A program made the translations under genes and the position numbers. Below the pieces are notes generated by a model. The model saw only the letters and a program-made list of their open reading frames with translations. It searched no databases and was not told where the DNA came from. From positions 1-60,731 of the forward strand of contig JABGOP010000006.1 in the NCBI GenBank assembly GCA_018645365.1: 60,731 nucleotides of DNA, given 5' to 3'. The stretch's first letter is position 1. Every line of letters starts with the position of its first letter. Positions 34,857 to 60,731 of the stretch are shown piece after piece. This DNA is from Candidatus Cloacimonadota bacterium. Lineage in GTDB: Bacteria; Cloacimonadota; Cloacimonadia; Cloacimonadales; TCS61.

Positions 34857-34948
34857 AAATTCTCCTTAATTTTTAATGAATTCCAAGATTTTTGTTTACA
34901 ATGTAAAAGTCAATAATGTTTTTGCATCAAAAAAGGATAGGACGAAAA

Positions 34949-38263: not shown

Positions 38264-38916
38264 AATATAAAGCGGTGATTTTTGATTTAGATGGAACGCT
38301 CATCGATTCGATGGGGGTGTGGCTACAAGTTGATGAAGAATATCTTTCCAAACGAAATATTCCTGTCCCCGAAAATTTATTTCAGGATATTGAAGGTGGT
38401 AATAGTTTTGTGGAAGTTGCACAATACTTCAAAGATAAATTTGGTATAAAAGATTCGATAGACGAAATTGCGAAAGAGTGGACTTCGATGGTGGAAAAAC
38501 ACTATAAAAACGATGTGCCTTTGAAAAATAAAGTTCGCGAGTTTTTGCAATATTTGAAAGAAAATAAAGTAAAAATAGGTGTGGGAACAAGCAATTCAGA
38601 GTTTTTGGCAAAAACGGTTTTAGAAGCCAATGGTGTGCTCGATTATTTCGAGACGATTGTGGATGGATTCCAAATTACAAAAGGCAAGCCTAATCCTGAT
38701 ATTTTCCTGAAAGTTGCACAAGATTTGAATGTAAATCCCGCAGACTGTTTGGTTATTGAAGATGTTTTGGCGGGCGTAAAAGCTGCTAAAAAAGCTGAGA
38801 TGACGGTGTTTGCTATTTACGATGAACATGCCGAAATAGAACAAAATGAGATTAAAAAAATAGCAGATTTTTATGCGAATAATTTTGATGAAATTTTGGA
38901 AATAATTAAAAGTTAA
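38260..38916 (+). CDS. HAD family phosphatase (subfamily IA)
   Basis: FDLDGTLIDS, GKPNPDIF, VIED..G. Confidence 0.9.
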   Translation: MKYKAVIFDLDGTLIDSMGVWLQVDEEYLSKRNIPVPENLFQDIEGGNSFVEVAQYFKDKFGIKDSIDEIAKEWTSMVEKHYKNDVPLKNKVREFLQYLKENKVKIGVGTSNSEFLAKTVLEANGVLDYFETIVDGFQITKGKPNPDIFLKVAQDLNVNPADCLVIEDVLAGVKAAKKAEMTVFAIYDEHAEIEQNEIKKIADFYANNFDEILEIIKS

Positions 38917-39745
38917 TTCCCAAAAATTTCTCAATTAAATTTAAACAAACAACAAAACGATAATTTTGATCTGACCTGAAATCGGAAATCGGAGTGATTT
39001 CGACAGCGATAATTTTTGTAAGTTCATCTTTTTTTATCTCGTTTATGCGTTTAGTTATTAAATAATTTTCCAGATTTACGAGTCTTCGCGGATATTCGTT
39101 CACACTTCCGACGGCGATTTTTATTTTTTTAATCCGATTATTTTCGATAAATTTTAACCCTGCAACGGTGATTTTTGAAATTGTTAAAGAATTTCTTGCA
39201 CCGACTTTTTGGTAAAAAGTTTCAAGGTTATTTTCCGCATTTTTCGGAATAAGGATGGCTTTTACTAGCTCATTTTTTTGCAAATCAAATTCCTTGTAAC
39301 CTCGATAAAAACTATTGAAAGGTATAATTCTGGAATTATTTTTTGAGATTAATTCTAGCTTTGCATCCAAAATAAGGAGTAGCGGACTAACATCATTTGT
39401 GGGTGAGCCATTCACGATATTTCCGCCGATAGTTGCTAAATTTTGGATGATAGGTGATGCGAAAAACTTTAGCGAGTTCTGAAAAAATGGTAGGTGTTTT
39501 GCTAAATAATCAGAATGTAGAATATCTGAGAAAGTGGCAGTCGAGCCTATCGAAATATGTCCATTGATTTCCGTGATATTTCGCAAAACATTCAAGTGGC
39601 TTATGTAGAAGATGTTAACGTTTTTGGGGATATTTTTTGTTTGGAGATTGATGTCTGTTCCGCCTGCTAAAAAATAGTTGGTTGCATTTGAATTCTCGAG
39701 TAATTCAAATAAGTTTTTCAAGTTATTGGGTCGGTAAAAAATCAT
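38906..39745 (-). CDS. Xanthine dehydrogenase family FAD-binding subunit
   Basis: LAGGTD, NLATIGGNI.NGSP, PISDFRS. Confidence 0.9.
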   Translation of the reverse strand: MIFYRPNNLKNLFELLENSNATNYFLAGGTDINLQTKNIPKNVNIFYISHLNVLRNITEINGHISIGSTATFSDILHSDYLAKHLPFFQNSLKFFASPIIQNLATIGGNIVNGSPTNDVSPLLLILDAKLELISKNNSRIIPFNSFYRGYKEFDLQKNELVKAILIPKNAENNLETFYQKVGARNSLTISKITVAGLKFIENNRIKKIKIAVGSVNEYPRRLVNLENYLITKRINEIKKDELTKIIAVEITPISDFRSDQNYRFVVCLNLIEKFLGINF

Positions 39746-40209
39746 GATAAATCCAATTTTTCACACGCCATTAGAACAGAATCGAATATTTTTTGATAGC
39801 CAGTGCAGCGACAAATATTTCCCGAAAGAGCAATTTTAATTTTTTCTAAGTTTGGCTCACCATCAGTTTTGAGATAATGATAAGAAGAGACGAGAAATCC
39901 TGGAAAGCAGAATCCACATTGGACTGCGTTCGTTTCATCAAAACAGTCTATGAGTAGTGTACCGATTTTTGTTTTAGCTATTCCTTCTGCGGTAAGAATT
40001 ACGCCATTTTCAGCGTGAATAAGATTGGCAATGCAACTTGCGACAGGTTTGTCGTTTAAGAGAATAGTACAAGCTCCACACTCACCTTCGCCACAACCTT
40101 CTTTTGTTCCTAAAAGCTGGAAATGTTCGCGCAAAACATCGATCAAACGCGTCATTGGATTTGCGTCAATTTCTACTTCGTTTTTGTTAAGAATAAATTT
40201 AATTTTCAT
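39742..40209 (-). CDS. Xanthine dehydrogenase family 2x[2Fe-2S] subunit
   Basis: GCGEGECGACT, QCGFC, GNICRCTGY. Confidence 0.94.
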   Translation of the reverse strand: MKIKFILNKNEVEIDANPMTRLIDVLREHFQLLGTKEGCGEGECGACTILLNDKPVASCIANLIHAENGVILTAEGIAKTKIGTLLIDCFDETNAVQCGFCFPGFLVSSYHYLKTDGEPNLEKIKIALSGNICRCTGYQKIFDSVLMACEKLDLS

Positions 40210-42349
40210 TTTTGGACCTTATTATGTTAAAAATATTTTCGGGTGTAAGTGGATATTCATCGACGAAAATACCAGTTGCATTGAGGAAAGCGTTTCGTAC
40301 CGCAGGTGCTGGAAAGTCCATCGGAATTTCGCCCAAACCTTTAGCAATTTTATTGTCAGTGTGGATAAATTCGACATCAATTTCGGGAACATCTAATGTT
40401 GTGGGAAGTGTATAATCGGTAAAATTTCTAACTCGTCCAAATTTTTTTTTATAGAAAAATTCACTGTTTGCATACGCTAAAGCCTGCAAAATTCCGCCTT
40501 CTGCTTGTCCTTCTGCAATTTTCTGATTTACCACTTTACCGATGTCAAATACGTTCCAACTTTTGATAATTTCAAGTTTATAAGTATCAGCATGAAAATA
40601 AATTTCGTTTACACACGCCGCCCACGAATAATCTTTGTAAGCCATTCCAACATAATTATTTTCGTCAAATACAATAGACTTATCAGGAATGTAAACTTTT
40701 CTAAATTCTCTTGGAAACTCATTTTGATGTGTTGCTACATAACTTTCTAAATTTTCGAAATTTAATTTTTTTTGAATTTCACGTGCCAATTTTTGCAATA
40801 AATTTCCGATGATATAAATAGTGCGAGATGCTACTGTTGGTCCGCTATTTGGCGTTTTGCTCGTGTTTGGAAGCTGAACTCTACATTTCTCTTTTGGGTG
40901 GTTAATTGTTTCATAAAACATTTGTGACAGAGTAGTGTGTGCACCTTGTCCCATGTCGGTATTTGCTACAAAAATTTTTACATTTGCGTTTTTTTCGATA
41001 ATGATTTTCAGCTCTGACTTAAGCACTTTTTCGCCATTTCCAGTAAATCCACCTCCGTGAAATCCGACCGAAATTCCAATTCCTTTTTTGTTTGAATTAT
41101 CTTTATTCCATTCTGCAAATTCTTTTTTTTTTGAAAGATAATTAGAATTTTTGATAACGCGTTCCAAACAATCAATTAGATTATTTTCGGTGATTTTTTG
41201 AGTAGTTGGAAACTCGTCACCAATTTTAAATAAATTTACTTTTCGAAAAAGATAAGGATCAATTTTCAAATCAATCGCAATTTGGTCGATGTGTGCTTCC
41301 ATTGCAGCAAGAGCTTGCGGTACGCCAAAACCACGAAAAGCACCGTTTGAAGGGGTATTGCTTTTAAAAAGGCGTCCACGAATTTTTATGTTCGGAATGG
41401 CGTAACTTCCTCCCACATGAAGTACACCACGTGCCATTACGACTGGTGAAAGCGTTTGAAATGCACCTGCATCCAATCGATAATCAATGTTGCATTTTTC
41501 AATTTTTTGAGTAAGCGGATTTGTCCAAGTTTCAATCTCTATGCGAGATGGATGGCGTTTTGTGGTAATTTGAATATCATCATTTCGAGTTAAAACAATT
41601 TTTACTGGTTTTCCACTTTTATAAGCCAATAGCGAAGTGATTCCTGCGAGTAAATTTGGAAAATCTTCTTTTCCACCAAAAGCACCCCCAATTCCTTCCG
41701 AAGTTTCGATGATTGCTTCATTGATGGCATTTCCCATAATGGTTTCAACTCCACTTTTCACAAAAAATGGACATTGTGCGGTAACACGTACAAACATGGT
41801 TTTTTTTGTTTCGTCATAAATTGCAATTGCACCTTGAGGTTCTAGATATGCTTGTTCTTGGTGTTGAGTATAGTAGATGTTTTTATGGTAATTTCCAGTA
41901 TTTTTTTCATTATTCGAATGGTTAATTAGAATTTCTTTGCCAAAATGATTTCTTTCATTATCGAGACACTCTTTTGGATCAATAATTGCGGATAATTTTT
42001 CGTATTTTACTTTGATATTTTCAACAAAATCCCGTAATGTCTTTTTGTCTGAATGGGCAATTCCCAAAATGATTTGTCCAAAATGCATTACCTCTTTTTC
42101 AGCCATAAATGGTTGGTCGCAAACCGGTTCAGGCACGATATTTTTACCTAAAATATTTTTTGCTGAAATTATCGTAAATTCATTCAAATCAAAGTTTTTC
42201 GGGAAAATAATGTTTTTGATAATTCCATGATGACAGGTGGAGTAAAACAGTTGACCGAAAATCATGTTTTCATAAGAATAGTCGTCCAAAAATTTCCACG
42301 AACCGTTTAATTTTGGGCGTGCATCAAATTTTTTTACCGCTTTTTTCAC
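40199..42349 (-). CDS. Xanthine dehydrogenase family molybdopterin-binding subunit
   Basis: GGAFGGK, GAFRGFGVPQ, DMGQG, TVASR, KGLGE; GTG start coupled to the upstream stop. Confidence 0.92.
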   Translation of the reverse strand: MKKAVKKFDARPKLNGSWKFLDDYSYENMIFGQLFYSTCHHGIIKNIIFPKNFDLNEFTIISAKNILGKNIVPEPVCDQPFMAEKEVMHFGQIILGIAHSDKKTLRDFVENIKVKYEKLSAIIDPKECLDNERNHFGKEILINHSNNEKNTGNYHKNIYYTQHQEQAYLEPQGAIAIYDETKKTMFVRVTAQCPFFVKSGVETIMGNAINEAIIETSEGIGGAFGGKEDFPNLLAGITSLLAYKSGKPVKIVLTRNDDIQITTKRHPSRIEIETWTNPLTQKIEKCNIDYRLDAGAFQTLSPVVMARGVLHVGGSYAIPNIKIRGRLFKSNTPSNGAFRGFGVPQALAAMEAHIDQIAIDLKIDPYLFRKVNLFKIGDEFPTTQKITENNLIDCLERVIKNSNYLSKKKEFAEWNKDNSNKKGIGISVGFHGGGFTGNGEKVLKSELKIIIEKNANVKIFVANTDMGQGAHTTLSQMFYETINHPKEKCRVQLPNTSKTPNSGPTVASRTIYIIGNLLQKLAREIQKKLNFENLESYVATHQNEFPREFRKVYIPDKSIVFDENNYVGMAYKDYSWAACVNEIYFHADTYKLEIIKSWNVFDIGKVVNQKIAEGQAEGGILQALAYANSEFFYKKKFGRVRNFTDYTLPTTLDVPEIDVEFIHTDNKIAKGLGEIPMDFPAPAVRNAFLNATGIFVDEYPLTPENIFNIIRSKNEN

Positions 42350-43584
42350 AGTTTAATTTCCTCAAGTTTTTTAATCGGTTGTGGCACTTCAATAATGTTT
42401 TGAACCGATGCTAAATCTTTCAACCCACTCCCAGTGAGTAATACGATATTTTTGGAATTTTCTGCGACATGTCTTGATTGTTGAAATTTCTGAAATCCGG
42501 CAAATGCAGTAGCCGCCGCAGGTTCAGTAAATAATCCACTATTTTCACTCAATTGTTTTGATGCTTTCAAAATTTCATCATCTGTTACTAAAACTGTTTT
42601 TCCATCATATTTTTCGATAAACTGTTTTGTCATCCAAAAATTTCGTGGAATATCAACTGCAATTGAATCGGCGATGGTTTCACTTTTGTTTGATGTGAAT
42701 TTGTTGTTCTTTAAATTACGAATAAGATTATCACTTTTTGCAGATTGCACCGCAATAATTGTGGGTATTTTTTGAATGATGCCGAGTTTTAACAAATCTT
42801 CAAAACCTTTATAAACACCAGAAATAATGCAACCATCTCCAACTGGGACAAAAATATTTTCGGGAATTTGTTGGTTCAATTGTTGGAAAATCTCGAAGGA
42901 AACTATTTTTTTCCCTTCAATTGTGAGTGGATTGTACGCAGTATTACGATTGAACCAGCCGTGTTTTTTAGTAGCTTCGATACTTAAATCGAATGCTTTA
43001 TCGTAATTTCCATCAACAGTAATTAGTTTTGCGGCGTACATCAAAATTTGGGTTAATTTAGCTTTTGGTGCGGATTTTGGTGCGAAAACAATAGCTTCTA
43101 AGTTTTCGGCAGCACAAATTCCAGCAAGAGATGAACCTGCATTCCCAGTTGAAGCAGTTACAATTTTTTTGATGCCATTTTCTTTTGCAAAAGCACAAAC
43201 CAAATCGGAAGCTCTATCTTTGAACGAAAAAGTTGGATTTTGTGAGTCGTCTTTCAAAAATAGTGAAAAATTTTGATTCTGCATAAATGGAAGGTTAGAA
43301 ACATCATAAAGTGGGGTTTTGCCGATTTTCAAAAATGATAATGAATTTTCAAATTTTATTGGTAATAGAAAGCGATATTCTTTCGCTTTAAGTTTATCGA
43401 AAAGTTTATCTCTTTTGTACCTTGTTTTTACTTTTTTGTAGTTGTATAAAATTTTTAAAACACCTTTCGGTGGTTGATTTGGCACATTTTCTTTTTCACA
43501 TTTTGGACATAAATAGATGAAATTTTCGGCAGGATATGTTTTGCCACAGTTGGTACATTCAAAAAAATATTTATCTTTTTTCAT
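42346..43584 (-). CDS. Threonine-synthase-family PLP enzyme (fold type II) with N-terminal Zn-ribbon
   Basis: CTNC...CPKC; NPTFSFKDR (PLP Lys), ASTGNAG, PVGDG, LTGSGLK. Confidence 0.85.
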   Translation of the reverse strand: MKKDKYFFECTNCGKTYPAENFIYLCPKCEKENVPNQPPKGVLKILYNYKKVKTRYKRDKLFDKLKAKEYRFLLPIKFENSLSFLKIGKTPLYDVSNLPFMQNQNFSLFLKDDSQNPTFSFKDRASDLVCAFAKENGIKKIVTASTGNAGSSLAGICAAENLEAIVFAPKSAPKAKLTQILMYAAKLITVDGNYDKAFDLSIEATKKHGWFNRNTAYNPLTIEGKKIVSFEIFQQLNQQIPENIFVPVGDGCIISGVYKGFEDLLKLGIIQKIPTIIAVQSAKSDNLIRNLKNNKFTSNKSETIADSIAVDIPRNFWMTKQFIEKYDGKTVLVTDDEILKASKQLSENSGLFTEPAAATAFAGFQKFQQSRHVAENSKNIVLLTGSGLKDLASVQNIIEVPQPIKKLEEIKL

Positions 43585-45904
43585 TTTTTAGAATTCCATT
43601 TAGAATTTTTTCTGGAGTTAGTGGTAGTGTTCTAATTCGTACGCCGACTGCGTTGTAGATTGCGTTTGCAATCGCAGCAAGAGGTGTGTCGATGCCAATT
43701 TCACCGACAGATTTAGCACCATAAGGTCCAGCAGGATCGTAACTTTCTGCCAGCTCAACGGTTAATTTTTTCACATCACATCGATTTGGAATTTTATAAT
43801 TCATCATATTATTTGTCAGCATCCGCCCGTTTTTAGAATATTTCACATCTTCGAACATTGCCATTCCAATACCTTGTAAAACTCCGCCTTCTACCTGAAT
43901 TTTAGCTAAATTTGGGTTAATTGGTGTGCCGCAATCTACCACCGCAACATAATCGAGAATATCTATTTTTCCAGTTTCGGTGTCGAGCTCAATCTCCACA
44001 AAACCAGCCATAAATGGTGGGGGTGATTTTGGGCTTGTATTTGAACCAGATGCAATTAATTGTTCCATATCTTCGGCAAAGCTGTAATAAAGTCCTTCCG
44101 AAAGTTCTTTCAAAGTTATTGTTTTCAAACCATCTTTTGATTTCAGAATGCCATTTTGGAAAGTGATTTGTTTTTCATCAATTTGCCAAATTTTTGCACC
44201 AGTTTGAATAATTTTCTTTTTCATATTTTCAGCAGCTTTTCGTACAGCATTCCCTGTAACGAAAGTTGTGCTAGATGCGTAAGCTCCGACATCAAAAGGA
44301 GTTACGTCTGTGTCGGAGGAAGTGATGACAAATCTGTCAATTGGTACATCTAAAGCTTCAGAAGCAATTTGTGTTAAAATGGTGTCGCTTCCAGTTCCGA
44401 TGTCGGTTGCGCCGACCAATAGATTGAAAAATCCATCGTCATTGAGTTTTACGATTGCGGAGCCCATATCTAGAAGAGGAATTCCCGAACCTTGCATCGC
44501 AATGGCAGTTCCAACGCTTCTGATTTTGTTCGGTGCAATTTTCAGGAAAGGGAATTTTTGTTTCCATTTTATCAAATCTCGTCCGCGACTGATACAATAA
44601 TCTAATTTGCAACTTTCCATTTTTTGCTCGATACCTTCTCCACCTTCACCCATTACTTTGAAAACTGGCGAAGTTTCACCTTCTTTGATGGAATTTTTCA
44701 AACGAAGTTCAACTGGATCCATCTGTAATTTATGTGCTAATTCATCAATCGCAGATTCGACTGCAAAGTTAGCCTGAATAGCACCGTAACCGCGATATGC
44801 ACCAGCTGGACAGCGATTTGTGTAAACTACTTTTCCCTCAAAGCGAAGTGCAGTTGCTTTGTTGTACATCGGCAAAAGTTTGGAACCGGCAACCATAAAA
44901 GTCGTTAGTGCATGCTCACCGTGAGCACCTGTATTGGAAAGTAGTTGAATGTCGAGTGCGTGAATATTTCCATTTTTATCTGCTCCGAGTTGAATATCAA
45001 AACGCATTTCGTGGCGCGTAAAAGTGCTTTCAAAAACCTCTTTTCTGGTGTAAATACATTTTGAAGGTTTTCCTGTTTTTAGCGTTACAATTGCTGAAAA
45101 AAGATCATTATGGATTTGTTGTTTTCCACCAAATCCACCTCCAATGCGTGGTTTGATAACGCGAATATCACGAAGTGGTTTTTGCAAAGCTTCTCCGATT
45201 ATGCGGCGAGTATGGTATGGATTTTGGGTAGATGAAATAATTGTAAGTCGTTGTTGATAATCAAGATATGCTGTTGATGAATGTGGTTCCATTGCGACAT
45301 GTTGTTGAGCGTGAGTGTAATATCTATGATTCAAAGCAACATCACATTCTGCCAACGTTTTATTTACATCACCAACTATCATTGTGTTGGTGTAAGAACA
45401 CGCCACATTTTTTTGTGCGTCAAGCCCCATTGGAAACATCGTGTAAATTTCTTTTTCAGGGTGAATAATTGATGGGTGATTTTCTGCTTTTTCAAAGTCG
45501 AGAACTGGCTCAAAAACCTCAAAATCTACTTCGATTAGTTTGATTGCTTTTTGTACCGATTTCTCAGAGCGACCCGCAATAATTGCCACCTCATCACCGA
45601 CATATCGCACGAATTCATCTAAAATAAAATAATCTTTTGGTGATGGTTCTGGGTAACCTTGACCAGCACGAGTAATGGGAATTCGTGGTACATCTTTATG
45701 AGTTAGAATGCACTCTATCTCATTGAGTTGCAGTGCTTTTTCGGTGTTAATCGAGCGAATTTTTGCAAATGCATGCGGACTGCGTAAGCATTTAATAATC
45801 AACGCGTTTTCATCGGTTAAATCATCTGTATATGCGGGTAAGCCACGCATCAAACCGTTTGCATCTACTTTGGGAATGGAATGTTTCACAGTTTTGAAAT
45901 TCAT
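43571..45904 (-). CDS. xdhD: XdhD-like molybdenum hydroxylase, molybdopterin-binding subunit
   Basis: TRAGQGYPEPSP, GGGFGGKQ, AYRGYG, TDIGTG, GAYASSTT, GAKSVGE. Confidence 0.85.
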   Translation of the reverse strand: MNFKTVKHSIPKVDANGLMRGLPAYTDDLTDENALIIKCLRSPHAFAKIRSINTEKALQLNEIECILTHKDVPRIPITRAGQGYPEPSPKDYFILDEFVRYVGDEVAIIAGRSEKSVQKAIKLIEVDFEVFEPVLDFEKAENHPSIIHPEKEIYTMFPMGLDAQKNVACSYTNTMIVGDVNKTLAECDVALNHRYYTHAQQHVAMEPHSSTAYLDYQQRLTIISSTQNPYHTRRIIGEALQKPLRDIRVIKPRIGGGFGGKQQIHNDLFSAIVTLKTGKPSKCIYTRKEVFESTFTRHEMRFDIQLGADKNGNIHALDIQLLSNTGAHGEHALTTFMVAGSKLLPMYNKATALRFEGKVVYTNRCPAGAYRGYGAIQANFAVESAIDELAHKLQMDPVELRLKNSIKEGETSPVFKVMGEGGEGIEQKMESCKLDYCISRGRDLIKWKQKFPFLKIAPNKIRSVGTAIAMQGSGIPLLDMGSAIVKLNDDGFFNLLVGATDIGTGSDTILTQIASEALDVPIDRFVITSSDTDVTPFDVGAYASSTTFVTGNAVRKAAENMKKKIIQTGAKIWQIDEKQITFQNGILKSKDGLKTITLKELSEGLYYSFAEDMEQLIASGSNTSPKSPPPFMAGFVEIELDTETGKIDILDYVAVVDCGTPINPNLAKIQVEGGVLQGIGMAMFEDVKYSKNGRMLTNNMMNYKIPNRCDVKKLTVELAESYDPAGPYGAKSVGEIGIDTPLAAIANAIYNAVGVRIRTLPLTPEKILNGILKNEKR

Positions 45905-46353
45905 TATTTAACTCCCAAAAATTTTTTAATTCCGCGAAGTTGCCCTTCGTAGCCAGAGCATCTGCATAAATTTCCAGCAAGATAGCGATTTACATCTTCC
46001 ATTGTTGGATTTTTTAACTCTTTTTGAAGAGCGTAGACGGTAAGAATTAGGGCGGGTCCACAAAATCCACATTGATCTGCTCCTTCATTTACAATCGCAT
46101 CAATAATAGCATCAGCTTTTTTGCCCAAGCCTTCAACTGTGGTGATATTTTTTCCATCCGCACGCACCGCCAAATATGAACACGAAAGAATTGGATTTTC
46201 GTTTAAAAGGACAGTGCAAACGCCACAAGTAGCAGTGTCACAACCTTTTTTGACACTTTTAAATCCGAGTTTTCGGAGTAGATTTAAGAGCGTTTCGTCG
46301 GGTTCAATTTGGCAGTCATATTTCTGATTGTTTATATTTAGTGAAATTTTCAT
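45904..46353 (-). CDS. Molybdenum hydroxylase 2x[2Fe-2S] subunit
   Basis: GCDTATCGVCT, QCGFC, GNLCRCSGY. Confidence 0.93.
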   Translation of the reverse strand: MKISLNINNQKYDCQIEPDETLLNLLRKLGFKSVKKGCDTATCGVCTVLLNENPILSCSYLAVRADGKNITTVEGLGKKADAIIDAIVNEGADQCGFCGPALILTVYALQKELKNPTMEDVNRYLAGNLCRCSGYEGQLRGIKKFLGVK

Positions 46354-47102
46354 AAGGTTTCCTCCAATGCGCGTTTCAGCAAAACAGATGCGATATTTTC
46401 ACGGTACGAAGCAGTTGCTCTTAAATCATTTCCGAAAGTAAAATTTTGTGAAATAAATTCGGAAATATTTTCTAGCTCATTTTTTGCTGAAATGAGTTTA
46501 GCAACAGTGGGGCAACTACCGATGGCTATGTTTAGTTGACTGTTTTTATTAACTGCAACCGTCAAAATTGGAAAATCAGAATCTGCATTTCGTAACATTT
46601 TGTAAGAAAGTCTTCCACATTTTTTTGGAATAATGATTTTGACAAGAATATCATTTTTGGTTTGCGAATTTTCGATGAAATCCTTAAAAGCAATTACTCC
46701 ATTTTGATGGAAAACAAGAGTACAATTTAAGACGCTTAAAGCGGTAATGAGTTCTGAAAACCCGTATTTTCCGCAAATTGAGCCACCGATTGTAGCGATA
46801 TTGCGAAATTGAATGCCGACAATATGTTTTAGTGATTTTGTAAAAAAATCGCCAAAATATTTTTTAATGATTGCATTTGTTTCGATTTCGTGAAGTGTTG
46901 TATAGGCTCCAATTTCAATGTTTTCATCATTTTCTTTGATGAAATTTAACCCTAAATTTTCCAAATCAATTGCGGTGGAAAATGTTTTTTTATTCAATCT
47001 TAAATAGGTATTTCCGCCCAAAATTACAGCGTTTTTTTCATTTTGTAAAATCTGGTAAGCTTCTGCTAAATTTTGTGGTTTTGCATAATTTTTAAATTTC
47101 AT
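46350..47102 (-). CDS. Molybdenum hydroxylase FAD-binding subunit (YgfM-like)
   Basis: LGGNT, QFRNIATIGGS, DLRATASYR. Confidence 0.85.
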   Translation of the reverse strand: MKFKNYAKPQNLAEAYQILQNEKNAVILGGNTYLRLNKKTFSTAIDLENLGLNFIKENDENIEIGAYTTLHEIETNAIIKKYFGDFFTKSLKHIVGIQFRNIATIGGSICGKYGFSELITALSVLNCTLVFHQNGVIAFKDFIENSQTKNDILVKIIIPKKCGRLSYKMLRNADSDFPILTVAVNKNSQLNIAIGSCPTVAKLISAKNELENISEFISQNFTFGNDLRATASYRENIASVLLKRALEETL

Positions 47103-47111
47103 AAAATCCTC

Positions 47112-48578: not shown

Positions 48579-48579
48579 A

Positions 48580-49521: not shown

Positions 49522-49584
49522 TTTTGACCTACCATTTTTTTTGACAAAATTTTATGCTTACCTTTTTTTAGGCAAGTTTTCTTC

Positions 49585-50766: not shown

Positions 50767-50777
50767 TCGATATCTCC

Positions 50778-51986: not shown

Positions 51987-54900
51987 CTATTCTCCTAAAA
52001 TTAAGTAATTGTAATTATTGAAAACTTGATTGATGAAAATTAGAATATTTTTGTCTTTTAAAGTAGCAATAATTTTTCCATTTTCATTTATATTTGCAGT
52101 GAACTCTCCATTGTTTGTGCGAATTTTTAGCGTATTTTTTTGGGTAAACACAAAGCCATTATTATCACTTTCCCCAAAATCTTTTTCGTTACCAAATAGG
52201 GTGAATTTATCTTTGTATGGTGCACCATCGAATGGACAAAAAGTTGTGCAATTTCCACACTCATTACACAAATAATCAAGATGTAAAATTTGATTTTTAT
52301 CTCTAAAATTATCGTCATAAATTTGAATATTAGCACGATTTGGGCAAACTTCCACACATTTATTGCAAATAAAATTACACTCTAAGCAGCGATTTGATTC
52401 ATTATTTTTTTTGCTAATTTTTTGTAGAACACCCTTTTTTTTTTCGATTTCGCTGAATTGTTTTTTATGGTCAAAATGGTAATTTTTTGTGTCAATTTTT
52501 GTTATTTGTTCTTTTTGAAAAATGCCATTCGCAATTTTTTGAGCATCAGCAATAGCTTTTACGACTGTTGATGCACCACGAAATGCATCACCACCGATAA
52601 AAACATTTTTTACAGCAGTTTCATTGAATTCGTTAACTTCAATTTTACCATCTATTTTGATGCCAAAATTTTTCAAAAATTCGGAATCAACCACTTCGCC
52701 GATAGCTGAAATGACAGAATCAACTGCAAAAACTTCAAATTCATCTTCAATCGGAATCGGCTTTTTTCGTCCGCTTTCATCTGTTTTTCCCAACTTCATT
52801 TTTTGACATTTCAAAATGCCATTTTTGAACGAAATGGGATCGAGTAATTGTTTGAATTCAATGCCATCTTGAAGAGCAAAATCTAATTCTTCTTTGTCGG
52901 CTGGCATTTCGCTAATCGTGCGACGGTAAACGATGTAAACACTATCAATGTTCTTAACTTTTTTGGCAGCCCGTGCTGCATCCATTGCACTGTTTCCACC
53001 ACCAATAATGGCTACATTTTTCCCCAAATTTATAATTGATTTTTTGAAATTCTTTAAAAATGTGATAGCATCGATAATTTTGTTTTGGTCTGTTTCGATG
53101 TTCAATATTCGCGACTTCCCAGTACCAATTGCCAAAATAACATATTTGAAATTTTGTGATTTCAATTCTTCGAGGTTCAAATTTTCGTTACAATTCATCT
53201 CAAATTTTGTGAAATTACGAATGAAATTCACATCATTTTCGATAGCAATTTTTGGAATACGGAATTCTGGAATTATATTGGTAACGGTTCCTCCAATTTT
53301 TTCTGCTTTATCAAAAATGGTTACATCAAATCCATTTTTTCCCAAAAAATAAGCAGAAGAAAGTCCAGCTGGCCCTGCACCAATTACAGCTATTTTCACA
53401 CCGTTTTTCACAGCCGTATTTTGGAAATTTTGGATGAATTTTTGATAGCCATTTTCGGCGGCAATTTTCTTCATTTCACGAATTAAAATTGGTTCTTCAT
53501 AGTCATTACGTACACATTTTATGGTGCAATTGTGGTCGCAAATATAGCCAGTTATAAAGGGAAGTGGATTTTTGGAGATAATTAGTTCAAATGCTTCTTT
53601 AAATCGTTTTTTGCCGACCAATCGGATGTACTCTGGAATATCTTGGTTTATCGGACAGCCAATCTTGCAAGGTGCGATGAAACAATCAAATAGCGGTAGT
53701 TGTTGTGAAATTTTCATCGGTTTTTCAGGTTTAATATCTTTGAAATAATCGCTATTTTCAAGAGCATCATTTGCCAATAAATTCAATTTATTTAAGCTGA
53801 TTGATTCGTTGTTTTGATGTAAATTTGTAAGTTTTTCCGCAATTTGTTTCAAACGCAAATATCCACCCGGTTTGAGTAAGTCAGTTGCCATTGTAATTGG
53901 CTGAATTCCGCATTCCAAAATCTTTTCGGTGTTGAAATAATTTGCACCACCAGAGTATGAAATTGGCAAATTTCCGCTAAATTCGGTAGATAATTTTTCC
54001 GCTAAATTGATGGTGAGTGGAAATAAAGCGCGACCACTCATGTACATTTCATCGGTCGGCAAATAACCCTTTTCATTTGCAACTGCGAGCGTGTTGGACA
54101 GTTTTACTCCAAATTTAACATCACATTTTTTGGCAAAATCTTGTAAATTGTGTAGCATCTGAACTGCCGAATCGTATTGCATATCGTGCGTAAAAGATTC
54201 CTCTTTTAGCTTAATATTTTTAAAACCTAATTTCAGAAAAGCATTTTTCACATATTCGTAACCGTGCAAAGTTGGGTTCAATTTTACGAAAGTGTGCAGT
54301 TTTTTTTCGTGCATTAAATATTTACAAATTATTTCCTGATCTTCTGGTGGACAGCCGTGCATTGTGGAAAGCGTAATTGAATTGGATATTTTTGATGAAA
54401 TGTTTTCGGTAAAAGATGTGTTTGAAATTTTGGGAATTTTTCCATTTTGAATTGCATTTTTCAACTCGTTTTTACATTTTTGGAAAAAACTATTTCCAGA
54501 AGCATCTTTTAGATTTTCGATAAATTTATCTATTTTCGGTGATTTTATTCCCTTCAAATCGTAACCGACACTCATGTTAAAAACAAATGTTGATTTTTTT
54601 GAAAGTCCAAAAATTTCATTGAGAATGTGCAATAAAAACCATGCTTTCACATATTCTTCATAAGCTTGTTGAACGGTTAATTCTGTTGACCATTCGGTGT
54701 TATATCCTTCGTCGGTCGCATCAATACAGGGTTTTTCGATTTCCAGTTTGTCTAAAATTTGAACTGTTTTTAACTCGAAAAATCTGCTTCCAGTCAAAAA
54801 TGCAGCAACGATATTTTGGGTGGACTGAGTATGTGGTCCGGCGGCAGGACCGATTGGAGTGGCACATTTTTCATCAAAAATTTCAAAGTGAGTTTTGTCA

Positions 54901-55013
54901 GATTTAAAGAATTTATTTTTAGGTATGCCAAAAATAGTTTGTTGATTTTTGTGTTCTGCTAAAATCCAATTTAGCAAGGTTTCGAATTTTATCGGTCGCA
55001 TGATGTCACTCAT
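51987..55013 (-). CDS. ygfK: YgfK Fe-S flavoprotein oxidoreductase
   Basis: MSDIMRP, GPAAGPHTQ, TMHGCPP, MYMSGR, GltD-like GAGPAG/GGGNSAMD, C-terminal ferredoxin (CLECNFICNKC, CNECGNC). Confidence 0.95.
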   Translation of the reverse strand: MSDIMRPIKFETLLNWILAEHKNQQTIFGIPKNKFFKSDKTHFEIFDEKCATPIGPAAGPHTQSTQNIVAAFLTGSRFFELKTVQILDKLEIEKPCIDATDEGYNTEWSTELTVQQAYEEYVKAWFLLHILNEIFGLSKKSTFVFNMSVGYDLKGIKSPKIDKFIENLKDASGNSFFQKCKNELKNAIQNGKIPKISNTSFTENISSKISNSITLSTMHGCPPEDQEIICKYLMHEKKLHTFVKLNPTLHGYEYVKNAFLKLGFKNIKLKEESFTHDMQYDSAVQMLHNLQDFAKKCDVKFGVKLSNTLAVANEKGYLPTDEMYMSGRALFPLTINLAEKLSTEFSGNLPISYSGGANYFNTEKILECGIQPITMATDLLKPGGYLRLKQIAEKLTNLHQNNESISLNKLNLLANDALENSDYFKDIKPEKPMKISQQLPLFDCFIAPCKIGCPINQDIPEYIRLVGKKRFKEAFELIISKNPLPFITGYICDHNCTIKCVRNDYEEPILIREMKKIAAENGYQKFIQNFQNTAVKNGVKIAVIGAGPAGLSSAYFLGKNGFDVTIFDKAEKIGGTVTNIIPEFRIPKIAIENDVNFIRNFTKFEMNCNENLNLEELKSQNFKYVILAIGTGKSRILNIETDQNKIIDAITFLKNFKKSIINLGKNVAIIGGGNSAMDAARAAKKVKNIDSVYIVYRRTISEMPADKEELDFALQDGIEFKQLLDPISFKNGILKCQKMKLGKTDESGRKKPIPIEDEFEVFAVDSVISAIGEVVDSEFLKNFGIKIDGKIEVNEFNETAVKNVFIGGDAFRGASTVVKAIADAQKIANGIFQKEQITKIDTKNYHFDHKKQFSEIEKKKGVLQKISKKNNESNRCLECNFICNKCVEVCPNRANIQIYDDNFRDKNQILHLDYLCNECGNCTTFCPFDGAPYKDKFTLFGNEKDFGESDNNGFVFTQKNTLKIRTNNGEFTANINENGKIIATLKDKNILIFINQVFNNYNYLILGE

Positions 55014-56318
55014 TTAATATCTCCCTTTATTTTTTGCAAACCTTGCGAACATTTTTTTGGAAATTTCAGTCGCATTTGCAAAATAATCTTCATAAATATT
55101 TTTTGTAATTTGATAGTTGTCCAATAAAATCTCATTATTTTTTATCACATATTGGCAGCGTGATTCGGAGACACCAAAAATCAGATGACCTAAAAATTGT
55201 TCAGTATTAAAAGGGGTCGTTGGCTCGTAATCAAAAATAGCAATGTCGGCGATTTCACCTTCAAAAATACCGATTTCTAAACCAAATGCATTTTTTAATT
55301 TATAATTATTTAGGAAAAGTGCTTCCATTTCAGGGTAACCAATATCGCAGTTTTTATTCAAATATTTTGTGAAAATCATAGAATTTTTGAGCGCTTTCAT
55401 CGTACTTGAATGCATTCCGTCGGTACCGACAGTTGTCTTGATTTTTGATGAGATAAATTGGGAAATATTGCCAATGTTGAGCCCGTTGTTCATGTTTGAA
55501 TCTACAGCTTGCACGATGAATACATCGCGATTTTGTAGGATAATTAAATCGTTTTTGGTCAAATTACTACAATGAATTAGTAGTGAATTTTTACGAAGCA
55601 ACCCAAAATTATCAAATCGTTCAATTAAGCTTTTCCCATATTTTTTTTGACACTGAATTGCGTCAAATTCATCTTCTGCAATGTGAACATGAATCGGAAA
55701 ATCTTCGGTAGTGTCGGCTATTTTCTGCAAACTTTTATCACTTAATGTGAAAGATGCATGTAACCCGATCATGCCTTGAATTTTTTTTCCTTTTTGCAGT
55801 TTTGCAAAACGAATATTTTCCAGCAATGATTCTTCAAAAAAAAGCTCACCGTTTCTGTCCGAAATTTCAAACGCAACAGTTCCGCTAACTCCGTAATTAT
55901 CAAATACTTCTGCTATATCTGAAAGAGCATTCTGCGTATAACCAGAAATATGATGGTCGAAAATAGTGGTAACGCCGTTTTCAATCGCGTTTTTCATCGC
56001 AATTGCCGTCGATAAAATCATGTCATCTTTGTTTAATGAATGATCGAGTGTCCACCATAAATTTTTCAAATTTCCCAAAAAATTTTGAAAAGGAACATCA
56101 CATGGCACACCTTTTGCAAGAGTGGAATAGATGTGGTGGTGTGCATTCGTTAAAGCTGGGAGAATGATTTTATTTGTGGCGTCAATGACACGGTCTGCTG
56201 TTTGATTTTTTTTTTGAAAAGTTATTTTTCCATTTACGATATAGACGTTTTTTTTCTCAATAATAATTTGATCGTTTTTGGGTAAAATAACATACCCATT
56301 TTGAATTTCATAATTCAT
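55014..56318 (-). CDS. ssnA: SsnA-like amidohydrolase
   Basis: NAHHHIYS, GVTTIFDHH, GLHASFTLSD, HVHIAE, SNMNN, GTDG. Confidence 0.85.
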   Translation of the reverse strand: MNYEIQNGYVILPKNDQIIIEKKNVYIVNGKITFQKKNQTADRVIDATNKIILPALTNAHHHIYSTLAKGVPCDVPFQNFLGNLKNLWWTLDHSLNKDDMILSTAIAMKNAIENGVTTIFDHHISGYTQNALSDIAEVFDNYGVSGTVAFEISDRNGELFFEESLLENIRFAKLQKGKKIQGMIGLHASFTLSDKSLQKIADTTEDFPIHVHIAEDEFDAIQCQKKYGKSLIERFDNFGLLRKNSLLIHCSNLTKNDLIILQNRDVFIVQAVDSNMNNGLNIGNISQFISSKIKTTVGTDGMHSSTMKALKNSMIFTKYLNKNCDIGYPEMEALFLNNYKLKNAFGLEIGIFEGEIADIAIFDYEPTTPFNTEQFLGHLIFGVSESRCQYVIKNNEILLDNYQITKNIYEDYFANATEISKKMFARFAKNKGRY

Positions 56319-56440
56319 AAAGATACTCCTATTTTTAATGTGTATGTGAAGCCTCGTTTAGAAATTCAAAGTAAGTTGCACCTTTCCGTTTAGTTCATTA
56401 AGCACGCAATTTTTTAAGGATGATGTGTCAAGTTAAAACA

Positions 56441-57364
56441 TTATTCTCTGTTTTCTCGGAAATATGCTAAACCCAAAGATTTCGGTAAATTCGAGCGTTT
56501 CCCTCTTAATGAAATGAATAGTAAAAACAGCAAAGTGAAAATGTATGGAATGCTTTTTAAAAGGATAATTGGAAACGCGATGTTAAATTTTTGTAGATTT
56601 AAACCAAGCTGGGTGAGACCACCGAAAAGATAGGCACCACCGTACGCGATGAGTGGATTCCAATTTGCGAAAATTACCAATGCAATCGTAATCCAACCGC
56701 GACCAGCTGTCATCCCTTCTACCCACAATTTGGAATAAGCCACCGAAAGATAGGCACCGCTAATACCGATGAGCATGCCGCCCACGATGGTGGCAATATA
56801 GCGAACTTTAATGACATGAATTCCCATGATTTCACTGGAAAGTGGTTCTTCGCCAGAACTTTTGAGAGCGAGTCCCCATTTAGTTTTTGCAAAAATAAAC
56901 CAGATAACAAAAGGTAAAACATAAGCAAAATAAACCAAAATGTTGTGTTTGAAAAGAATTTCGCCGACGATTGGGATTTTACTTAAAATGGGAATGAAAA
57001 TTGGTTGGATGGAAAATTTTAGTGTTTTGCCGACTAACCCAATTCCAAAAAATGCACTAATTCCAGTGCCAAACATTGTGAGGGCTAGTCCAGAAACTAC
57101 TTGATTTGCTCGAATTGTGATTGTCATAAAAGCATGAATTAATCCCATCAAGCCGCCGATAATTGCTGCTCCTAAAATTGCTAAAAATAAATTTCCAGTA
57201 TGATATGCTACAAAATAGCCGAAAAAAGCACCCATCAGCATCATACCTTCTACACCAAGATTCAAAATTCCAGATCGTTCTGTAATTATTTCACCGATGG
57301 TGGCATACAGGATAATCGTGCCACTTGCGATTGCTGTAAAAAGAATGGTTATTAGGTCTGACAT
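56441..57364 (-). CDS. Nucleoside/purine ABC transporter permease
   Basis: ERSGILNLGVEGMML, GE.P...GI.V, GRGWI.IALV. Confidence 0.92.
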   Translation of the reverse strand: MSDLITILFTAIASGTIILYATIGEIITERSGILNLGVEGMMLMGAFFGYFVAYHTGNLFLAILGAAIIGGLMGLIHAFMTITIRANQVVSGLALTMFGTGISAFFGIGLVGKTLKFSIQPIFIPILSKIPIVGEILFKHNILVYFAYVLPFVIWFIFAKTKWGLALKSSGEEPLSSEIMGIHVIKVRYIATIVGGMLIGISGAYLSVAYSKLWVEGMTAGRGWITIALVIFANWNPLIAYGGAYLFGGLTQLGLNLQKFNIAFPIILLKSIPYIFTLLFLLFISLRGKRSNLPKSLGLAYFRENRE

Positions 57365-58422
57365 TACTTTCTCCTCAAAATTTGAACATTATAATTCTTG
57401 AATAATTCGCCACCTAAAATAGCAAAAAGAATCAAAGATTGAATAATAACACCAACCGCTGCCGGTAAATGCATCACGATTTGAAGTGAATCTACACCTT
57501 TCAATAAAATGCTCAAGAAAAAAGCAAAAAATACAATGACAAATGGGTTCGAACGCGCTAACCATGCTACGATAATGCCAGTATAGCCATAACCGTTTGA
57601 GATGTGTTGGTGCAGTTTGTATTCGATGCCACAAATTTGTCCAACGCCAGCTAAACCTGCAAGTGCGCCACTTATCAAGAAAACGAGAAACATCATTTTT
57701 TTGATTTCTATGCCAGCATATTTGGCGGCTTTCAAACTTGAACCAGTGAGGCGAAGTTTATATCCCATTCTCGTATGATAAATTATAATGTAAAGTAAAA
57801 TAACTAACAAAATTGCAATAATAAAACCAAAATGTACACGCCCAAAATTCAATCTTGGAAATTTTGCTTCAAGCGGAAATTCGGGAGTGTATGGGAAGTT
57901 ATCTTTTCCTTTCCAAGCCCCAAAAAGAAAATAATCGGCTATGTTGATAGCAACATAATTCAAAAGTAAAGTGGAAATAACTTCATTCATTTTAAATTTT
58001 ATTTTGAGTAAAGCTGGGATTGCCGCCCAAACTGCACCGCCAATCATTCCTAAAAGTACCATGATAGTGAGCATTAATGGGCGTGGTAAAACGGGTCCGT
58101 AAATAACGAATGCGGTTGCAAAAATGGCACCGAAAAAGAGCTGACCTTCTGCGCCGATATTCCAAATTTTGCTGTTCAATGCGATGGCTACGGATAAACC
58201 TGTGAAAATCAAAGGAATAGATTTTACCAAAGTTTCCGAAAAACCATAGCGTGACCCAAAAACAGAAGTCAGAATTTTCCAAAATGCCACGAATGGATTG
58301 GCACCATTTAGGGCGATAAAAATGCCAGAAAGTATTAGAGCGAAAGCAATTGCGTATAAATTTATAATGAGCTCTTGCTGTTTTGAAACGCGTTCTTTTT
58401 GTTCCAATTTGATTCTAAACAT
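57364..58422 (-). CDS. Nucleoside/purine ABC transporter permease
   Basis: WNIGAEGQ, NEVISTLLLNY, GYGYTGIIVAWLA. Confidence 0.92.
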   Translation of the reverse strand: MFRIKLEQKERVSKQQELIINLYAIAFALILSGIFIALNGANPFVAFWKILTSVFGSRYGFSETLVKSIPLIFTGLSVAIALNSKIWNIGAEGQLFFGAIFATAFVIYGPVLPRPLMLTIMVLLGMIGGAVWAAIPALLKIKFKMNEVISTLLLNYVAINIADYFLFGAWKGKDNFPYTPEFPLEAKFPRLNFGRVHFGFIIAILLVILLYIIIYHTRMGYKLRLTGSSLKAAKYAGIEIKKMMFLVFLISGALAGLAGVGQICGIEYKLHQHISNGYGYTGIIVAWLARSNPFVIVFFAFFLSILLKGVDSLQIVMHLPAAVGVIIQSLILFAILGGELFKNYNVQILRRK

Positions 58423-58430
58423 CTTTGCTC

Positions 58431-59957
58431 CTAATTTTCCAAGTTTTCGATTTCTTGACCGCTCATCATCAAACCAATTTGTTCGAGAGAGTAGTCACCA
58501 TTATTGAAAAGTCCGGTAAATTTACCTTCACACATCACGGCAATGCGGTCTGAAAGTCCAAAAATCTCATCAAAATCGCCCGAAATTAGAATAATCGCTT
58601 TGCCTTTATTTCGTAAATTTAAAATTGAATTTCGCACAAACTCGGTTGCCCCTACATCTAATCCGCGTGTAGGATAAACGCAAATGTATAAATCACAATC
58701 GCGTTCGATTTCGCGTCCGATAATTAATTTTTGTAGGTTTCCACCCGAAAGTAAGAGTGCTGGCAAGTTGATTCCAGGCATCATAATGTCATATTTTTGA
58801 ATGATTTTTTCGGCGTATTTTTTTAATTTTACATTATTTAAGAGGAGTCCTTTTTTGAATTTTGGCAGTCGGTAAACTTTCATAATTAAATTTTCCCAAA
58901 CTGAACGATTACCTGCCACGCCAACATTTATACGGTCTCCCGGAATGTAGCTGATGCCTTCGTCAATTCTCTTTTTGGGTGAATGTTGAGTGATATCTCT
59001 ATTTTTGAATTTGATGTTTCCACTTCCAACTTTTCTGTTTCCAGTGAGTGCATCCGCTAATTCAATTTGCCCGTTTCCAGTAACGCCAGCAATACTTAAA
59101 ATTTCGCCACCTGCTACATTGAACGATAAATTTTTCACCGCCAAGACGCCATTATTGGAATTTACAAAAAGATTTTCAATTTTCAGGATTTCAGGTATTT
59201 TTTTTGTTTTAGGTAAATTAAAAGTAGTGTTATGTTCTTTTCCAACCATCATTCTGGCAAGTTCATTTGGGGTAGTTTCTTCTTTGTTTACGGTTGCTAT
59301 TTTTTCACCCTTTCGTAGAACTGTGATGGAGTTTGCCACTTGGAAAACTTCCGACATTTTGTGTGTAATGAAGATGATTCCCTTTCCTGAATTGGCAATA
59401 TTTCTTAAAATTTGCATTAAATTATCAGCTTCTTGTTTGGTAAGAACGGTAGTCGGTTCGTCCACGATGAGTACATCAACTTCGCGTACGAGCATTTTGA
59501 GAATTTCCACTTTTTGACGAATACCAATCGGTAATTCATCGACGATTGCATCAAGATTAATGTGGAAATCGAATTGTTTCATATATTTTTGAATTAATAT
59601 TTTTTCGACAGCCACATTGATGATAAATTTGTTTTTGGGATGTCCTAAAATGAGATTTTCAAAAACAGTTAAATTTCCCACCAAGCTGAATCTTTGGTGT
59701 ACCATTCCGATTCCCATTGAAAGTGCATCACCAGGAAAATTTAACACCATTTTTTTGCCTTTGAAAAAAGTGTCGCCTTCATCTGGAAAATAGACGCCAG
59801 TTAGCATGTTCATTAAAGTGGTTTTGCCAGCTCCATTTTCACCTAAAAGTGCTTGAATCTCTCCTTTTCTAAGAGTAAAATTTATTTTATTGTTTACTTT
59901 AATCCCAAAAAAAGACTTGGAAATATTGCGCATTTCTACTAGGAATTCACCAATCAA
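58431..59957 (-). CDS. Nucleoside/sugar ABC transporter ATP-binding protein (two fused NBDs)
   Basis: GENGAGKTT, DEPT, LSGGNLQK, PTRGLDVGA. Confidence 0.93.
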   Translation of the reverse strand: MIGEFLVEMRNISKSFFGIKVNNKINFTLRKGEIQALLGENGAGKTTLMNMLTGVYFPDEGDTFFKGKKMVLNFPGDALSMGIGMVHQRFSLVGNLTVFENLILGHPKNKFIINVAVEKILIQKYMKQFDFHINLDAIVDELPIGIRQKVEILKMLVREVDVLIVDEPTTVLTKQEADNLMQILRNIANSGKGIIFITHKMSEVFQVANSITVLRKGEKIATVNKEETTPNELARMMVGKEHNTTFNLPKTKKIPEILKIENLFVNSNNGVLAVKNLSFNVAGGEILSIAGVTGNGQIELADALTGNRKVGSGNIKFKNRDITQHSPKKRIDEGISYIPGDRINVGVAGNRSVWENLIMKVYRLPKFKKGLLLNNVKLKKYAEKIIQKYDIMMPGINLPALLLSGGNLQKLIIGREIERDCDLYICVYPTRGLDVGATEFVRNSILNLRNKGKAIILISGDFDEIFGLSDRIAVMCEGKFTGLFNNGDYSLEQIGLMMSGQEIENLEN

Positions 59958-59984
59958 GTTGGCTCCTTTTGTGAAATTATTTTG

Positions 59985-60020
59985 AACAAAAAAGCGAGAC
60001 CAGTATTAGCCGATCTCGCT
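59985..60020 (-). terminator. Intra-operon stem-loop/terminator after the substrate-binding-protein gene
   Basis: Minus strand AGCGAGATCGG-ctaata-CTGGTCTCGCT followed by TTTTTGTT. Confidence 0.75.
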
Positions 60021-60032
60021 GTAAAATAAAGC

Positions 60033-60731
60033 TTATTTTGATTCTGGAACTTTTCCTTTTACACCCTTAACAAACCACTGAATGCTAAGCTTTTCACCAT
60101 CATTGAGAGCTTCGCCTTCTTTTACTTTGAGTTTGCCATTATTGTCGTAAAGTGGTCCATTGAAAATATAGTCATCAGCGATAATATTTTCTTTTACAAT
60201 AGCTAATTCGTCGATAAGGGTTTGTGGAACGATTTCATGAAATTTGGAAAGTGCAGTGATGCCACTATCTAATCCCCACCAAACAGGAGTACTTTCCCAC
60301 TTGCCATCTTTAATTTTTTGAGCGATATCTTTGTAATAAACGCCCCAATTCCAAATTGCACTTGTAAGTTGTGCATTCGGTGCCATAAAGGACATATCAC
60401 TATCGTTGCCGATTGAATAAACTCCAGCCAATTCTGCTGCTTCTTGTGGTCCAGCTGAGTCTGTACCTTGAGTAATGAGGTCGCAACCTGCTGCAATCAT
60501 TGTGCTTGCAGCTTCTTTTTCTAAGACAGGATCGAACCAAGAATTTGTCCAGATAACCATCACCGTTGCATCTGGATTCACGCTTTGTGCACCGAGTGTG
60601 AATGCATTGATGTGACGCACAATTTCTGGAATAGGAAATGGTGCTACATAACCAAGTTTTCCACTTTTAGACATTGTCCCAGCCACGATCCCAGCCATAT
60701 ATTTAGTTTGATACATTCTGCCAAAATAATT
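60033..60731 (-). CDS. BMP-family ABC transporter substrate-binding protein (purine nucleoside type; 5' truncated)
   Basis: Frame open to the window end (NYFGRMYQ...); PIPEIVR.INAF.LGA, WFDP, WNWG.YY, WFVKGV. Confidence 0.9.
   Translation of the reverse strand, partial: NYFGRMYQTKYMAGIVAGTMSKSGKLGYVAPFPIPEIVRHINAFTLGAQSVNPDATVMVIWTNSWFDPVLEKEAASTMIAAGCDLITQGTDSAGPQEAAELAGVYSIGNDSDMSFMAPNAQLTSAIWNWGVYYKDIAQKIKDGKWESTPVWWGLDSGITALSKFHEIVPQTLIDELAIVKENIIADDYIFNGPLYDNNGKLKVKEGEALNDGEKLSIQWFVKGVKGKVPESK

Follow-up and report, generated by a model that had tools for sequence, protein, structure and literature searches.

A variant 2,8-dioxopurine gene cluster in Candidatus Cloacimonadota that lacks recognisable HyuA and YgeX and may use substitute enzymes

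The window analysed here, a stretch of 60,731 nt that forms the entire contig C1 of a Candidatus Cloacimonadota genome (G000; 1.79 Mb, 96.9% complete), carries a block of genes resembling the known cluster for reductive urate degradation through 2,8-dioxopurine. Labels such as G096, C17, L018 and P0007 are analysis-internal identifiers of genomes, contigs, loci and proteins. The block comprises 17 open reading frames, all co-oriented on the minus strand, that run from 60731 down to 38906, and 13 of their 16 junctions are overlaps or spacers of at most 11 nt. It encodes, in this order, a BMP-family ATP-binding cassette (ABC) importer, an SsnA-like protein, YgfK, YgeY, YgeW, carbamate kinase, a 488-aa pyridoxal phosphate (PLP) enzyme termed PLP488, a first Mo-hydroxylase, a second PLP enzyme of 412 aa termed ThrC412, and a second Mo-hydroxylase (Table 1). 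Proteins were assigned by NCBIfam, Pfam and TIGR profile searches, and bit scores are given against the family cut-off. An earlier note on this DNA had described one co-oriented block, translationally coupled for the most part, with the importer, ssnA, ygfK, ygeY, ygeW, carbamate kinase and two Mo-hydroxylases. Our analysis confirms this description, with the SsnA assignment lying under its cut-off. The gene list of that note omitted PLP488 and ThrC412, which both match PF00291 (PALP), the Pfam family of DpaL.

Table 1. Genes of the block, their predicted products and the evidence for each (bit scores versus family cut-off)
Product	Position	Strand	Evidence
BMP-family ABC substrate-binding protein, C-terminal part	60033..60731	-	PF02608; first 130 codons on contig C17
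ABC ATPase, two cassettes	58431..59957	-	PF00005 x2
ABC permease	57364..58422	-	PF02653
ABC permease	56441..57364	-	PF02653
SsnA-like amidohydrolase, predicted six-membered-ring opening	55014..56318	-	Best NCBIfam matches SsnA, under cut-off
YgfK, predicted 2,8-dioxopurine reductase	51987..55013	-	TIGR03315, 1418 vs 835
YgeY M20 hydrolase, predicted ureido hydrolysis to diaminopropionate	50778..51986	-	TIGR03526, 529 vs 321.5
YgeW carbamoyltransferase	49585..50766	-	TIGR03316, 612 vs 500
Carbamate kinase	48580..49521	-	TIGR00746, 379 vs 358
PLP488, CysK/CBS-fold PLP enzyme (Lys109), predicted beta-eliminase near the YgeW step	47112..48578	-	PF00291, model, conservation, fusions
Mo-hydroxylase 1, FAD subunit	46350..47102	-	PF00941, PF03450
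Mo-hydroxylase 1, 2Fe-2S subunit	45904..46353	-	PF01799, PF00111
Mo-hydroxylase 1, Mo subunit (777 aa, Mo777), XdhD-like, predicted urate to 2,8-dioxopurine	43571..45904	-	E. coli XdhD similarity
ThrC412, threonine-synthase-like PLP enzyme (Lys122, N-terminal 4-Cys motif), predicted diaminopropionate ammonia-lyase	42346..43584	-	PF00291, TIGR00260
Mo-hydroxylase 2, Mo subunit (716 aa)	40199..42349	-	PF02738, PF20256; 24% to E. coli XdhA, 20% to XdhD
Mo-hydroxylase 2, 2Fe-2S subunit	39742..40209	-	PF01799
Mo-hydroxylase 2, FAD subunit; block end, convergent with HAD gene	38906..39745	-	PF00941

According to the accessible text of Liu et al. (10.1101/2025.04.24.650524) and Li et al. (10.1101/2025.05.19.654654; PMC12507026), the known pathway converts urate to 2,8-dioxopurine by XdhD/XdhAC, YgfK reduces this compound, and SsnA followed by HyuA carries out the openings that lead to 2,3-diureidopropionate. 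One ureido group is then lost as carbamoyl phosphate through YgeW, with carbamate kinase making ATP, the other is removed via YgeY, and the remaining 2,3-diaminopropionate (DAP) is converted to pyruvate by YgeX (DpaL). In common with the clusters of E. coli K-12 and C. sporogenes, the block combines an XdhD-like Mo enzyme, YgfK, an SsnA-like protein, YgeW, carbamate kinase and YgeY. In contrast to them, G000 lacks HyuA, YgeX, YqeB and YqeC, and it has in addition the two PLP enzymes, the BMP-ABC importer and the second Mo-hydroxylase in the block as well as an AllB-like amidohydrolase elsewhere. Measured against what defines a 2,8-dioxopurine cluster, G000 has YgfK, YgeW with carbamate kinase, and YgeY, and fails for HyuA, YgeX/DpaL and YqeB/YqeC.

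The SsnA-like protein scores 316 against a cut-off of 455.5 and is 31% identical to E. coli SsnA; its gene abuts ygfK. The Mo subunits of both hydroxylases lie under every XDH family cut-off. Mo777 is about equally similar to E. coli XdhD (35.5% identity) and XdhA (35.4%), and its Glu420 aligns with Glu606 of E. coli XdhD, which is named as an XdhD-specific residue in the accessible text of Li et al. (10.1101/2025.05.19.654654; PMC12507026). Judged by homology, the steps of Mo777, YgfK, the SsnA-like protein, YgeW with carbamate kinase, and YgeY very probably proceed as in E. coli and Clostridium.

The missing enzymes were searched for in the whole genome. The sole match to the DpaL/YgeX profile TIGR03528 in G000 is ThrC412, with 40 bits against a cut-off of 532. 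For HyuA (TIGR02033, cut-off 393), the best matches in G000 are a dihydroorotase with 234 bits and an allantoinase-like protein with 227 bits. The 234-bit candidate was rejected, as it is PyrC and sits in a pyr operon. YqeB and YqeC were not found in G000, which encodes SelD and an xdhC-mocA pair. In a survey of 201 genomes of the phylum, which are related and so not independent, YqeC and HyuA over its cut-off occur in 0/201 each, and DpaL in 19/201. The earlier note had reported that the block holds no HyuA and no DpaL and had read it as a departure from the canonical form of the pathway in an environmental anaerobe. The first statement holds for the block, across the genome by profile search and for the region upstream; the second is supported by these genome-wide absences and by the counts across the phylum.

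As that note had also pointed out, the 5′ end of the block is cut off by the window, the cut being the contig end. The first 130 codons of the BMP gene form the end of contig C17, and the two contig ends share 8 nt in frame. The C1-C17 junction is spanned by public contigs from runs X1, X2 and X5 (3448, 2102 and 1975 nt, respectively); it is bridged in three of four runs examined, from two studies, of which X1 may be the genome's own source run. Directly upstream of the BMP gene and on the same strand follow a tungstate/molybdate-type ABC importer, a GNAT gene, moeA, moaA, moaC, and genes of the MOSC and MogA types, with the importer and the cofactor genes at G000:C17:34937-40939 (L164:13500-19466). 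The block extends upstream into cofactor supply. Canonical hyuA and dpaL, which at this place would make the block an ordinary cluster with extra genes, are not among the genes upstream of the BMP gene on C17. That they are hidden in an assembly gap is ruled out, since the gap is closed by C17 with genes for molybdenum cofactor (MoCo) synthesis upstream. A BMP-ABC locus of genome G146 (72-85% identity) has different neighbours and did not settle the upstream question.

We examined whether each of the two PLP enzymes belongs to a known family. ThrC412 shares with DpaL/YgeX the type II fold of PLP enzymes, and a profile comparison aligns it with a DpaL across 290 columns (E 2e-10, probability 96.8). 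The profile of PLP488 does not match DpaL (probability 14.8). A structural model of PLP488 with a mean predicted local distance difference test (pLDDT) score of 91 gave Foldseek matches to CysK (O-acetylserine sulfhydrylase), Fn1055, beta-cyanoalanine synthase and CBS, with a target TM-score of about 0.8 and 20-28% identity, and the motifs P-S-T-G-N and N-Q are conserved. Enzymes of the CysK fold carry out beta-elimination via aminoacrylate. Unlike these families, PLP488 has about 170 extra residues and reaches only 103 of the 351 bits required for cysK, and CysE was not found in G000 (best match 31 vs 211 bits). It does not, by these measures, qualify as a cysteine synthase.

A candidate for the HyuA step lies outside the block. 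An AllB-like amidohydrolase with preserved metal-site motifs, the allantoinase-like protein with 227 bits for HyuA, is encoded at G000:C42:4799-6115. It resembles allantoinase AllB in these motifs and in its best score (TIGR03178, 329 bits; 29% identity to E. coli AllB). It differs in that the score is under the cut-off of 358, that the downstream enzyme allantoate amidohydrolase (AllC) was not found in G000 (tblastn, E 1e-6), and that 9 of 20 loci of its clade hold urate-cluster genes; both the score and the lack of an AllC match speak against an allantoinase. In a quick tree of 58 amidohydrolases, the protein groups with 20 others (21-row clade, SH-aLRT 99), apart from E. coli HyuA. This tree left out proteins aligned over fewer than 330 residues to the references, including the short hydantoinases of L100, L122 and L133. 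Besides the 9 loci with cluster genes, 2 of the 20 hold mocA/xdhC only. The clade occurs in 75 of the 201 genomes, 73 of which have the PLP pair, and is absent from families f3-f7. Among the cluster loci read from f3-f7, a different, divergent hydantoinase is frequent, and in G080, a family member without the clade, this other hydantoinase lies in the cluster. The best evidence for a HyuA stand-in is this complementarity. From its genomic context, the AllB-like enzyme probably opens the hydantoin.

To see how the PLP enzymes are distributed, we counted them in the 201 genomes. YgeW is present in 113, YgeY in 137, PLP488 in 164 and ThrC412 in 168, and of the 173 genomes holding PLP488 or ThrC412, 159 hold the two. 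Among the 113 YgeW genomes, 100 have no DpaL; each of these 100 carries at least one of the PLP enzymes, and 95 carry the pair. A wider scan confirmed at least 579 stretches with PLP488, of which the best 80 were read as loci. These span Bacteroidota, Ignavibacteriota, Acidobacteriota, Verrucomicrobiota and others, and another pathway gene was present in 73 of the 80, YgeX in 5 (one partial) and YqeC in 4. PLP488 lies directly behind ygeW in at least 48 of 114 copies, and ThrC412 directly behind ygeY in at least 20 of 65 and behind PLP488 in at least 15 of 65; these neighbour counts are lower bounds, with the loci of G000 itself, of E. coli and of DpaL set aside along with L074, L106, L111 and everything after L152. 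The PLP genes are often found near xdhC/mocA and Mo subunits. Fusions connect YgeY with ThrC (P0007, 4 members), SsnA with PLP488 (P0004, 6 members), ThrC with PLP488 (P0001 and P0002), and YgeW with PLP488 (a single 972-codon frame in G096).

Taken together, we lean towards the same pathway run with substituted enzymes, namely an AllB-like protein for HyuA and a ThrC-like protein for YgeX, and with PLP488 as an additional enzyme of the CysK fold that acts close to YgeW. The importer would take up purines, and the block would ferment urate by the 2,8-dioxopurine route. The Mo777 enzyme would convert urate to 2,8-dioxopurine, which YgfK would then reduce. The SsnA-like enzyme would open the six-membered ring and the AllB-like enzyme the hydantoin. 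YgeW and carbamate kinase would take off one ureido group and make ATP, and YgeY would release DAP. Genomic evidence makes ThrC412 our favoured, if not firmly established, candidate for the elimination of ammonia from DAP to give pyruvate. More tentatively, PLP488 might form aminoacrylate from the YgeW product, for example by loss of urea from albizziin, or might handle the other DAP enantiomer. The urate could be supplied by an 8-oxoguanine deaminase, which G000 encodes at C20:15986-17407 (L166:5987-7408; 628 vs 532 bits). Different downstream chemistry, as the earlier note had proposed, is borne out only in part. With YgeW, YgeY and carbamate kinase all intact, the intermediates should be those of the known pathway, and the HyuA and YgeX slots are probably filled by stand-ins; new chemistry, if any, would reside in the CysK-like PLP488 and in the absence of YqeB/YqeC.

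Several observations weigh against this reading. The distribution is not complementary, as PLP488 is kept in 19/19 DpaL genomes and ThrC412 in 18/19, and there is kinship among the counted genomes. Three of the five fusions are each known from one sequence only and may have arisen through misassembly. The AllB-like gene is unlinked to the block in G000, and 9 of the 20 clade loci are without a cluster or MoCo gene. In addition to its low YgeX score, ThrC412 differs from DpaL in having Thr146 and Asn214 in place of Asp120 and Asp189; Asp120 is described as a potential catalytic residue in the accessible text of PMC4000059. Finally, PLP488 shares a locus with YgeX in L018, L023, L027 and L031, and ThrC412 is present at another place in the genomes to which L018 and L027 belong.

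These four loci are acidobacterial. Next to ygeW and PLP488 they carry ygeX, yqeC and carbamate kinase, and three have xanQ as well; ThrC412 lies outside three of the four. They look like a canonical module added to a PLP-type cluster. That YgeX and YqeC adjoin PLP488 there, and that DpaL genomes keep PLP488, suggests that PLP488 does something YgeX does not. The same loci bear on the possibility that the roles are reversed or shared, with PLP488 as the DAP ammonia-lyase and ThrC412 as a racemase or a lyase for the second enantiomer, possibly in one complex. Such an arrangement would fit the position of PLP488 in ygeX's place behind ygeW, its CysK fold and motifs, and the fusion of the pair in P0001 and P0002. 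YgeX accepts both DAP enantiomers according to the accessible text of Li et al. (10.1101/2025.05.19.654654), and two enzymes might share them. We consider it rather unlikely, because PLP488 stays beside ygeW in the four loci with a full-length YgeX while ThrC412 lies outside three of them, and because ThrC412, not PLP488, resembles DpaL and is fused to YgeY.

A further point against a DAP lyase is that ThrC412 exceeds the thrC cut-off (TIGR00260, 189-190 vs 167.1) and is the only thrC in G000, which also has a homoserine dehydrogenase (Hom) and a borderline ThrB (167.4 vs 168.25). ThrC412 could then be a regular threonine synthase whose gene has drifted into this operon. Two lines of evidence make this very improbable. 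Hom was found in 4 of 60 near-complete ThrC412 genomes, taken from the 168 by completeness, and ThrB in 17/201 genomes of the phylum, compared with 168/201 for ThrC412. Moreover, ThrC412 has Ala149 and Thr221 at the positions of Thr88 and Arg160 of Thermus ThrS, two residues that presumably bind the substrate phosphate; Ala replaces Thr88 in 62/62 aligned members, and Arg is found at the Arg160 position in 0/62. ThrC412 therefore passes the profile for threonine synthase and fails on residue conservation and on co-occurrence with the homoserine pathway. The ThrB-like kinase of G000 (G000:C27:17662-19589) adjoins genes that resemble, by eye, a DapA-family aldolase and an aldehyde:ferredoxin oxidoreductase, not thr genes.

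The presence of YgfK is also patchy, which counts against the proposed route: its N-terminal part was found in 13 of the 60 ThrC412 genomes. It was found in none of families f2-f7, though most of these carry ygeY and the PLP pair, and another reductase may serve there. With many relatives devoid of YgfK and with the SsnA-like protein and both Mo subunits under their cut-offs, the operon might degrade another heterocycle, such as a pyrimidine or a modified purine, for which the canonical lower enzymes are not needed. This seems highly unlikely to us, as YgfK, YgeW, YgeY and carbamate kinase are all over their specific cut-offs and the equivalent of XdhD Glu606 is kept.

For the lower pathway as proposed, genomes without YgeW and YgeY are informative. 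Four of five such genomes tested carry two other carbamoyltransferases, so that wherever the PLP pair persists, the lower pathway seems to be kept as well. At L108, L110 and L126, and in G054, G055, G082 and G129, there is no YgeW and in most no YgeY, and two or three genes resembling ornithine or acetylornithine carbamoyltransferases stand in tandem. In the three loci these are followed by carbamate kinase and the PLP pair, and one carbamoyltransferase is about 89% identical across families. The tandem enzymes may take off both ureido groups in the form of carbamoyl phosphate.

The lack of YqeB and YqeC concerns the cofactor of the Mo enzymes. In the accessible text of Liu et al. (10.1101/2025.04.24.650524), SelD and YqeBC are present in all cluster-bearing gut strains, and the pathway, solved in 2025, is described as enriched in host-associated ecosystems and selenium-dependent. 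The gene content of G000 points to Mo enzymes with a sulfido ligand in place of a seleno one, which we regard as reasonably likely. One or both PLP enzymes might then supply the sulfide for the Mo=S ligand in place of YqeB/YqeC, with DAP being removed otherwise. The missing YqeBC, the frequent proximity to xdhC/mocA and Mo subunits and the occurrence of the H2S-producing Fn1055 among the top fold matches of PLP488 would agree with such a function. It is nevertheless quite unlikely, since PLP488 persists in four loci that have YqeC, since its fusion partners and those of ThrC412 are YgeW, YgeY and SsnA and none is a Mo or XdhC protein, and since DAP would be left without a recognisable sink in 100 genomes.

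Non-orthologous replacements in this pathway have precedents in the accessible text of Li et al., where a C. difficile variant uses UacX for YgfK and UacY for YgeW/YqeA and a Chloroflexota variant uses F420. These variants swap steps other than those of HyuA and YgeX, and replacements at the HyuA or YgeX step were not found in that text. In our literature search we found no description of the present variant and none linked to Cloacimonadota; its scope did not extend to subscription journals or to bioRxiv supplements (Supplementary Tables 8-11 of Liu et al.), where such clusters may be listed. The three departures described here, in HyuA, YgeX and YqeB/C, are seen across a phylum. Both PLP488 and ThrC412 pass PF00291 and would be counted as YgeX in Pfam-based surveys; YgeX was scored via PF00291 in the accessible text of Li et al. 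(10.1101/2025.05.19.654654; PMC12507026). Surveys that start from Clostridium genes and use BLAST may overlook it.

PLP488 and ThrC412 are small and easy to assay, and their substrates bear on questions that are open in the accessible text of Percudani (PMC12990295), namely whether the intermediate is albizziin or 3-amino-2-ureidopropanoate, and the stereochemistry. Judging from the accessible text of both studies, Liu et al. and Li et al. disagree on whether albizziin is the product of YgeW. As a speculative and rather doubtful extension, a reductive purine fermentation free of a selenium cofactor might be widespread in environmental anaerobes of many phyla. PLP488 would be an albizziin urea-lyase coupled to YgeW, ThrC412 a DAP lyase coupled to YgeY, and the hydantoinase would be derived from an allantoinase. 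Some lineages would use two carbamoyltransferases to gain two ATP per purine, and the E. coli form with YgeX, HyuA and YqeBC would be a gut-adapted minority. A selenium-independent urate reductase, if true, would matter for engineered uricolytic probiotics.

The nearest named matches of one block protein are 91% and 88% identical and both come from Candidatus Cloacimonadota, a phylum with an anaerobic lifestyle. Eight public runs, every one a marine or seawater metagenome, contain at least half of the sampled words; in RNA runs at most 0.10 of them are present. In a promoter scan, matches were not clearly more numerous than in shuffled sequence (20 vs 14.3 ± 3.5). At window positions 59993-60020, the BMP gene and the ATPase gene are separated by an 11-pair hairpin with a T run. 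Beyond the end of the block and convergent with it, the region 34916-38916 of the window holds a PhnD/PhnC/PhnE-type importer flanked by two HAD phosphatase genes, one of them of the YjjG type.

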